From a virus, in UHGV virus genome UHGV-1430452: a stretch of 64,000 nt of DNA; one strand, written 5' to 3'. The notes beneath the pieces are model-generated. The model did not search any database and was not told where the DNA came from. It worked only from the letters and a program-made list of their open reading frames with translations. Positions 47,959 to 48,030 of the stretch are shown piece by piece. The first letter of the stretch is position 1; the number at the start of each line of letters is the position of its first letter. The position numbers and the translations under genes are program-made.

Positions 47959-48030
47959 GAAACAGTGTAGGACTCGAACCCACAACCTACAGATATAAGT
48001 CTGTTGCTCTACCAATTGAGCTAACTGTTT
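47959..48030 (-). tRNA. tRNA with atypical 6-nt anticodon loop (CUUAUA; anticodon probably UAU, Ile)
   Basis: AAACAGT-TA-GCTC-AATTGGTA-GAGC-A-ACAGA-CTTATA-TCTGT-AGGTT-GTGGG-TTCGAGT-CCTAC-ACTGTTT-C. All four stems are good. The loop length is confirmed by the overlapping ORF-track translation (QQTYICR). Confidence 0.7.

Follow-up and report, generated by a model that had tools for sequence, protein, structure and literature searches.

The window analysed here, a stretch of 64,000 nucleotides (nt) of the virus genome UHGV-1430452, carries on its minus strand (48030..47959, A1 to C73) a 72-nt tRNA-shaped element whose anticodon loop has six nucleotides. We propose that this element is a non-decoding, tRNA-mimicking small RNA that descends from a tRNA and probably acts through the tRNA "top half", this being the best explanation of the data. 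It very likely belongs to a family of non-decoding tRNA-like RNAs, and a trans-acting, protein-binding role, rather than that of a leader element in cis, is put forward more tentatively, with somewhat less than even confidence.

Read 5' to 3', the element is AAACAGU-UA-GCUC-AAUUGGUA-GAGC-A-ACAGA-CUUAUA-UCUGU followed by AGGUU-GUGGG-UUCGAGU-CCUAC-ACUGUUU-C. Infernal aligned it over its full length to the Rfam tRNA model (RF00005; 62 bits, E ~5e-11), the sole deletion being within the anticodon loop. ARAGORN, run as the initial annotation of this DNA had suggested, called it "tRNA-???" with the two-nucleotide anticodon "ta", which is the form ARAGORN gives to a 6-nt loop. The minimum free energy (MFE) fold is the cloverleaf (-31.3 kcal/mol; z = -5.2 against shuffles), and R1, a covariance model built from the family described below, scores the element at 90.6 bits. 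The same 72 nt recur without differences in two separate ENA metagenome assemblies (OHES01000485, locus L029, and OHFN01000869, L035), and a further homologue, L010, has the CUUAUA loop of the window in an RNA that differs at two other positions. Chance and an error of assembly can therefore both be dismissed as sources of the 6-nt loop, and the tRNA-like element that contains it is confirmed as real. The initial annotation had described the cloverleaf and the CUUAUA loop from the sequence alone; both are borne out, its cross-check against an overlapping translation (QQTYICR) agrees with the DNA, and only the strand had to be corrected, to minus.

The tRNA core is strongly conserved. In an alignment of 32 sequences the invariant columns are exactly those of the universal tRNA core (U8, A14, G18, G19, G53, U54, U55, C56, A58 and C61). 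Pairing is complete in the T stem (100% of cells), four of whose five pairs have changed on both sides, and in the D stem (100%), and the Levitt pair 15:48 is G15:C48 in 11 sequences and A15:U48 in nine. None of 500 shuffles (0/500) reaches the observed covariation score. The RNAs are 88-92% identical where their flanks are about 50% identical (92% against about 50% for the window and L017). Such covariation, together with an identity of the RNA that exceeds that of its flanks, indicates purifying selection on an L-shaped tRNA fold. Of the features expected of an elongator tRNA, the element has the cloverleaf, the 7-bp acceptor stem, the D and T arms and the nucleotides of the tertiary interactions.

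Queries with the protein of the adjacent DUF6353 gene and with the RNA's 5' half against IMG/VR, metagenomes and GTDB genomes yielded at least 35 distinct homologous RNAs. Common to every member are the promoter box, the acceptor strand AAACAGU, normal D and T arms, the discriminator C and a CUYUU...UUUU trailer, and Rfam assigned all tested members to tRNA with 42-58 bits. The genome matches are Lachnospiraceae isolates and metagenome-assembled genomes (MAGs) and one Ruminococcus MAG, which places the family in prophages of gut Firmicutes. R1 recovered more diverged copies, second copies in some phages (L126, L079 and L032-type) and a copy missed by ARAGORN at the syntenic place in MT835485 (L001), the nearest GenBank relative. 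The distribution is patchy: some phages have one or two copies, and there is no copy near DUF6353 in L012-L016. An exact IMG/VR search with the D-stem/anticodon-arm segment GGTAGAGCAACAGACTTATATCTGTAGG returned no match, and a gapped stem-anchored pattern was dropped as a homologue search, having pulled in mostly unrelated tRNAs. The family thus described consists of widespread tRNA-shaped small RNAs, as yet without a name, whose carriers are phages and prophages of Lachnospiraceae in the human gut with a gene for a YonO-like polymerase. No specific description of it was found in the literature, and in Rfam its members fall under tRNA. The family may be contained in a catalogue of candidate structured phage RNAs from 2023 (PMC10690425), among whose entries are small RNAs with high expression from Lachnospiraceae and Blautia phages.

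Two further loci were noted. In the Lachnospiraceae isolate MGBC000092 (L040) a long-arm family member, on the minus strand from about 7310 in reverse-complement coordinates, has an interrupted T arm and is followed by a gene whose product, to go by the first part of its sequence alone, resembles an IS3-family transposase. On an unrelated viral contig of 94 kb (L006, IMGVR_UViG_3300029585_000037) another tRNA (4743..4815, plus strand) has a 6-nt loop, GACUAA, on the same ACAGA/UCUGU stem as the window, with a different acceptor stem and without the promoter box.

The anticodon arm behaves differently from the core. Its length among 34 homologues runs from 13 to 19 nt, most often 14 (4 bp and a 6-nt loop), and reaches 31-34 nt in two lineages; the canonical 17-nt arm occurs in only three of the 34, and the loops have 3-7 nt without a conserved U33, purine 37 or anticodon. 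As a structure the hairpin persists through compensatory changes; around one and the same loop, for example, CCAC/GUGG has become CCGC/GCGG. Even in the subgroup with the ACAGA/UCUGU stem the loops are CUUAUA (window and L010), CUUAAG (L017, where the arm can close to 6 bp and UUAA), UGUGUA (L033, without U33) and UUUGUAA (L011), and in L001 a CCAGA/UCUGG stem carries the tetraloop UUAU. The "anticodons" that ARAGORN reports for the homologues are ta, ct, tt, aa, ga, atac, tatg, aac, aaa, aat, tat, caa, cga and tgt, some of them with A34. Two features of elongator tRNAs are thus lacking: the element does not have the 7-nt loop with U33 and purine 37, and no anticodon or isotype is conserved among its orthologues. 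The initial annotation had proposed to look for the same loop in relatives: it is present in L010, while the other relatives vary freely, and the normal 7-nt loop, which would have pointed to a recent deletion in the window, is not the rule among them. Since loop length and sequence vary freely, we regard the 6-nt loop as one state of an unconstrained spacer hairpin and not as an anticodon loop that misses a base.

The two ends of the RNA are complementary to each other. The leader is mostly GAG or GGAG in the family and GAGAAG in the window and L010, and the leader/trailer pairs are GAG/CUY, GGAG/CUCU, GAAG/CUUU, GGAAG/CUUCU (L001) and GAGAAG/CUUUUC (window and L010). Every leader nucleotide is paired with the trailer in 30 of 30 intact members, the C residues of the trailer tracking the G residues of the leader. 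Leaders of 3, 4 and 6 nt are all fully paired, as is the 5-nt leader of L001, and the pairing generally ends at the promoter box. In the second copy of L126 pair 7:66 is lost and G-1:C73 is the first pair instead. The closing helix of the window, according to the MFE fold, has 13 bp, and a terminator scan flags the T arm and CUGUUUCUUU. No CCA is encoded, and the pairing of discriminator and trailer with the 5' leader argues, short of proof, against normal maturation; the RNA is presumably not aminoacylated.

Each family member is fused to a promoter box. The motif TTCGCGAAAWTTACAnnnnCTATTATG has 13 matches in the window at up to three mismatches, with 0 expected, and all of them are on the minus strand; one copy ends at 48036, so that TATTAT-GAGAAG stands directly 5' of A1. 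The motif as defined in the initial annotation, ending in ...TATTATGAG, stops 3 nt 5' of A1. That annotation had claimed that the element adjoins a phage-specific promoter and that this juxtaposition locates the transcription start. The first claim holds for the family as well, every member having the same box (TATTAT, TTTAAT or TATAAT) 3-6 nt 5' of A1, and the second is supported and sharpened by the leader-trailer pairing, which begins exactly after the box; on this ground we infer a start at the first purine after TATTAT, here G48036. Two further promoter-proximal RNAs in the window (27757.. and 52575..) have first transcribed purines that pair with a pyrimidine stretch before a U tract. 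A sigma-70 promoter was rejected, as a -35 element is missing at 16-18 bp and the helix of the RNA sets in 1-3 nt after TATTAT. With the standard -10/+1 geometry the start would fall inside the acceptor stem, and a phage-polymerase promoter is therefore preferred.

The 1056-amino-acid (aa) protein encoded at one end of the window (Table 1) is probably a single-subunit DNA-dependent RNA polymerase of the YonO/QDE-1 type, and it is a plausible reader of the 13-copy motif. Its homologues occur in at least 599 viral stretches, among them RNA-bearing contigs. Sequence searches of the PDB, by single sequence and by profile, with this protein, the DUF6353 protein and the DUF2828 protein discussed below gave nothing useful. 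The promoter of YonO is still undefined (PMC5467207). The fusion of box and RNA, with pairing directly after TATTAT, supplies YonO-like single-subunit RNA polymerases with a promoter and a +1 that can be put to the test.

We propose the following mechanism. Transcription would start at the first purine after the TATTAT of the phage promoter (G48036), and the purine leader of 3-6 nt would pair with the pyrimidine trailer into a closed stem of 10-13 bp, without a free NCCA and followed by U-rich sequence. The D arm, T arm and variable loop would form a genuine L-shaped tRNA core, and the anticodon arm would be a short spacer hairpin of arbitrary length and sequence. Such an RNA would read no codons; most likely a protein that recognises tRNA would be offered the "top half", with the elbow and the stacked acceptor and T stems, and the RNA could serve as a tether, decoy or competitor, after the manner of the YrlA-type bacterial and phage Y RNAs.

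Several points weigh against this proposal. (i) The start site and the 3' end are deduced from sequence, and the leader-trailer pairing need not keep RNase P, RNase Z and the CCA-adding enzyme from processing the RNA; the YrlA RNA of Mycobacterium smegmatis undergoes such processing. (ii) The CUUAUA loop of the window and L010 keeps U33 and a purine (A37) if position 38 is taken as the missing one, AUA is used 16 times per 1000 codons and makes up 24% of the isoleucine codons, and the 7-nt loop UUUGUAA of the L011 lineage resembles Thr-UGU; some residual decoding may persist in the lineage of the window and L010. (iii) In the window no promoter motif lies between the RNA and the ribosome-binding site (RBS) of the DUF6353 gene, about 85 nt 3' of the RNA, and a cis role is plausible. 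(iv) As to a role like that of the Y RNAs, the RNA is 20.4 kb away from the gene of the Ro60 homologue encoded in the window, on the same strand, and lacks the ACAGCAA module of Ro60-adjacent RNAs; MT835485, which has a copy of the RNA, is not among the 40 listed of 711 matches for a Ro60-like gene, the identities listed being up to 41.5%.

A cis role of the RNA on the DUF6353 mRNA, in processing, stability or attenuation, is a serious rival, although we consider it a minority possibility. As a cis-acting 5' element the RNA could stabilise the mRNA against 5'-end-dependent decay, act as RNase Z/RNase P "punctuation" that frees the mRNA, or work as a terminator or attenuator that sets the level of read-through. 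Its position fits such a role: it is always on the same strand as a gene start and 6-90 nt upstream of it, in most relatives a gene of the DUF6353 type follows at 25 nt to 1.5 kb, and a copy in L126 separates the promoter from a gene that comes only 11 nt after the promoter in the window. The closing helix followed by U-rich sequence, moreover, resembles an intrinsic terminator. A simple hairpin would suffice for these functions, however, which leaves the tertiary nucleotides and the Levitt covariation unexplained. In L032-type phages a new promoter motif comes within about 20 nt after one of the copies, which implies that this copy is a stand-alone unit, and the downstream gene varies between loci. 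The loop and the downstream RBS, compared by eye for antisense pairing, showed no convincing complementarity.

Two further readings concern the variable arm. The element may represent a new class of phage effector RNA, with a constant tRNA-core "handle" and a hypervariable arm that serves as a specificity or escape module under diversifying selection; we hold this to be unlikely. In such a case the handle might recruit or block a tRNA-recognising protein of host or phage, such as an immune nuclease or an enzyme that modifies or repairs tRNA, or else the ribosome, and the RNA would be a closed-ended primary transcript coming straight from the YonO-like polymerase and revealing its promoter and +1. 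A decoy or counter-defence RNA that soaks up or misdirects a host tRNA-targeting immune effector or a tRNA-binding enzyme, the arm varying in an arms race, seems quite unlikely. Phage tRNAs do counter tRNA-cleaving defences, and changes in the anticodon loop give resistance (PMC10264068, PMC11555353). The arm is the only fast-evolving part of the RNA, and the patchy presence of the family is typical of accessory or conflict genes. Most known defence nucleases, however, recognise the anticodon loop, the very part that is lost here, relaxed constraint explains the variation of the arm equally well, and no defence system or target was identified in this analysis.

That the RNA is a YrlA-like Y-RNA partner tethering the phage Ro60 homologue to another factor is, in our judgement, very unlikely. 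The Ro60 homologue is the 522-aa DUF2828+DUF7788 protein of the window, identified as such through its predicted structure. Its alignment-based AlphaFold2 model (pLDDT 79) was used, a single-sequence model being unusable (pLDDT 40), and the top eight Foldseek matches of the former are all Ro60/TROVE proteins (E = 1e-6 to 3e-5), including the Ro60 of a Thermus phage. Homologues of the Ro60-like protein occur in 711 GenBank phage records. At 51 related loci the Ro60-like gene is directly preceded, on its own strand, by tRNA-like RNAs of 110-130 nt with normal acceptor, D and T arms; examples are those of L190 (9142-9258, 9466-9590 and 9597-9711), and most loci from L167 to L232 have them 200-900 nt ahead of the gene, which is at 10001. 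In these Ro60-adjacent RNAs an insert of about 60 nt with ACAGCAA replaces the anticodon arm, which looks like the Y-RNA arrangement in a normal tRNA topology. ACAGCAA is enriched 14-fold in the 1 kb upstream of Ro60-like genes (51 viral loci), and three copies are present in the Ro60 leader of the window. The first unit of this leader, GAGAGAGAGUAG...CUACUCUCUUUUC and then a U tract, has a 5' end that pairs with its 3' end, and an Rfam search of the leader region gave no match.

Together with the tRNA mimicry of the YrlA RNAs (PMC4201824), these RNAs speak for a Y-RNA partner. The RNA of the window, however, lies far beyond the 4 kb within which Y RNAs are typically found, it has neither a long Ro-binding helix nor the ACAGCAA module, and its 5' and 3' ends form the acceptor helix and not a Ro-binding stem. 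No family member was found within 10 kb of a DUF2828 gene at 66 loci. Owing to the distance of 20 kb, the lack of the insert and of ACAGCAA, and the fact that MT835485 is not among the Ro60-like matches listed, we treat Ro60 as context rather than mechanism.

The initial annotation had read the loop from U33 as the anticodon UAU, and it is extremely unlikely that the element is a working decoder, whether a tRNA-Ile(UAU) whose loop has 6 nt or an RNA that reads doublets or shifts the frame. The perfect tRNA core and the identical loop of L010 are in line with a decoder, as is the use of AUA mentioned above. The Ile-UAU assignment is nevertheless unsupported, given that the loops of the homologues share neither length, U33, purine 37 nor anticodon and that their isotype calls are inconsistent. 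Furthermore, the leader-trailer pairing closes the ends, no CCA is encoded, and the open reading frames (ORFs) fit the standard genetic code. The alternative register UUA, which had also been considered, would need a stop-codon reassignment of which there is no sign: reassignment of TAG, TGA or TAA, with UUA or CUA suppressor readings, was rejected, since long ORFs merge under none of them. A frameshift or nonsense suppressor tRNA is likewise at odds with the unconserved loop and with the ORF lengths. A full-text literature search for 6-nt anticodon loops retrieved no paper, and we know of no natural elongator tRNA with such a loop. A decaying tRNA pseudogene, kept only through its overlap with promoter sequence, receives practically no credence: its 5' acceptor strand is invariant and contiguous with the conserved GAGA of the promoter, and pair 3:70 is mismatched in 18 of the 32 sequences, but the compensatory changes in the T stem, D stem, Levitt pair and arm hairpin are all distant from the promoter, the RNA is far more conserved than its flanks, some phages carry duplicated copies, and the pseudogene by recent deletion that the initial annotation had envisaged is contradicted by the strong, compensated conservation of the rest of the molecule.

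Table 1. Positions of the RNA element, its parts and other features in the 64,000-nt window.
Feature	Position	Strand	Basis or remark
tRNA-shaped core: 7-bp acceptor stem, D arm, 5-nt variable loop, T arm, discriminator C	47959..48030	minus	Rfam tRNA, model R1
"Anticodon" arm ACAGA-CUUAUA-UCUGU, 16 nt and not 17; 6-nt loop at 47999..47994	47989..48004	minus	direct reading
Purine 5' leader GAGAAG, 6 nt	48031..48036	minus	full pairing with trailer CUUUUC
Discriminator C and trailer UUUUC, paired with the 5' leader; no CCA encoded	47954..47959	minus	MFE fold, pairing in the family
U-rich tract GAUUUCUAUUUUUUC..., then small hairpin UCCCgaguGGGA, then UUUUU at 47925..47909	47909..47953	minus	possible weak 3'-end/termination signal
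Phage-specific promoter motif TTCGCGAAATTTACAAGCGCTATTATG; TATTAT box at 48042..48037; G48036, putative transcription start	48036..48062	minus	motif copies, leader-trailer pairing
DUF6353/phrog_2152 gene, 275 aa, apparent N-terminal hydrophobic, membrane-anchor-like segment	47042..47869	minus	Pfam E = 4e-89; PHROGs
Predicted Ro60/TROVE+vWA homologue, DUF2828+DUF7788, 522 aa	25967..27535	minus	predicted structure, Foldseek
220-nt leader of the Ro60-like gene, directly after a promoter box; three hairpins with loops beginning UAACAGCAA	27536..27757	minus	candidate Ro60-binding module
1056-aa protein with C-terminal sigma-r4-like helix-turn-helix	305..3475	minus	phrog_4291 "RNA-dependent RNA polymerase", E = 0
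Second, degenerate tRNA-like element; acceptor GGAAUAG/CUAUUCC, T arm CGUGGG-UUCGAAU-CCCGCG	52443..52526	minus	R1, 26.9 bits
Normal tRNA, anticodon CAU, C4-G69/C5-G68 in the acceptor stem	4438..4511	minus	Rfam, 69 bits
Large serine recombinase (Resolvase, Recombinase, Zn-ribbon domains)	56726..58312	plus	domains

The DUF6353 gene downstream of the RNA is one of three paralogous DUF6353/phrog_2152 genes within 6 kb (44029-44967, 47042-47869 and 49330-50106, minus strand), each with an apparent N-terminal hydrophobic, membrane-anchor-like segment, and in most relatives the tRNA-like RNA lies inside the DUF6353 module. The degenerate tRNA-like element was called neither by ARAGORN nor by Rfam at the gathering threshold. 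It lies downstream of a promoter-like box, within a putative transcript of about 52575..52425 whose purine 5' end pairs with a pyrimidine 3' end ahead of a long U tract. The normal CAU tRNA has a promoter-like motif about 55 nt upstream, and its C4-G69/C5-G68 pairs resemble TilS determinants, so that it may be tRNA-Ile2 rather than tRNA-Met. The large serine recombinase, together with the prophage copies in Lachnospiraceae genomes, suggests that the phage is temperate.

The family has consequences beyond this phage. Gene finders give "tRNA-???" or arbitrary isotypes for such loci, which pollutes analyses of phage tRNAs and codon usage, and a model of the R1 type would separate them. An abundant family of this kind is a natural experiment on which parts of a tRNA serve a non-decoding function. 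The RNA, the Ro60 homologue and the RNAs with ACAGCAA hairpins point, moreover, to an unstudied RNA-centred module in these phages.

Comparable tRNA mimics are found elsewhere. The vtRNAs (TMERs) of murid gammaherpesvirus 68, the 3' tRNA-like structures (TLS) of plant viruses and the tRNA-like domain of tmRNA recruit RNase P/Z or the CCA-adding enzyme without decoding, and in the TMERs the tRNA-like unit is at the 5' end of a longer transcript. These RNAs belong to other polymerases and hosts, TLS and tmRNA are aminoacylated, and to our knowledge none of them abuts a promoter in a phage or has a hypervariable short anticodon arm. The leaderless tRNA genes of Nanoarchaeum equitans, which are true tRNAs, have a fixed promoter distance and a start that is, or nearly is, the 5' end of the tRNA, whereas in the present family a leader of 3-6 nt is retained and paired with the trailer. 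Canonical phage tRNAs, among them loop variants that evade the anticodon nucleases of the host (PMC10264068, PMC11555353), share with the element the cloverleaf core, the Rfam and ARAGORN scores as tRNA, the location in phages and the changes in the anticodon loop; they have, however, a 7-nt loop and a defined anticodon, and are charged and translate, whereas here the loop is unconstrained, the ends are paired and there is no CCA.

The YrlA-type Y RNAs, the nearest known parallel, differ from the element in that their ends form the Ro60-binding stem and their "acceptor" is a closed stem-loop, whereas here the ends form the acceptor helix; no Ro-binding helix is present, and a reading by eye of the 72 nt, leader and trailer found no GNCGAA of the GNCGAAN0-1G motif. 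YrlA typically lies within about 4 kb of a Ro60 orthologue on the same strand, a distance exceeded several times here, and the present RNA is fused to a phage promoter, with an anticodon arm that is shortened and not replaced. The likeness to these RNAs lies in the core. YrlA RNAs mimic the D, T and acceptor elements of tRNA and show the G15:C48/A15:U48 Levitt covariation (PMC4201824), and they occur in phages that encode Ro60, as the present phage encodes a predicted Ro60 homologue. Like the element, they are non-decoding copies of a tRNA core with a covarying pair 15:48, and the "anticodon" stem of D. radiodurans Yrn1 has 5 bp and, as in the RNA described here, a loop of 6 nt (Chen et al. 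2014, PMC4201824).

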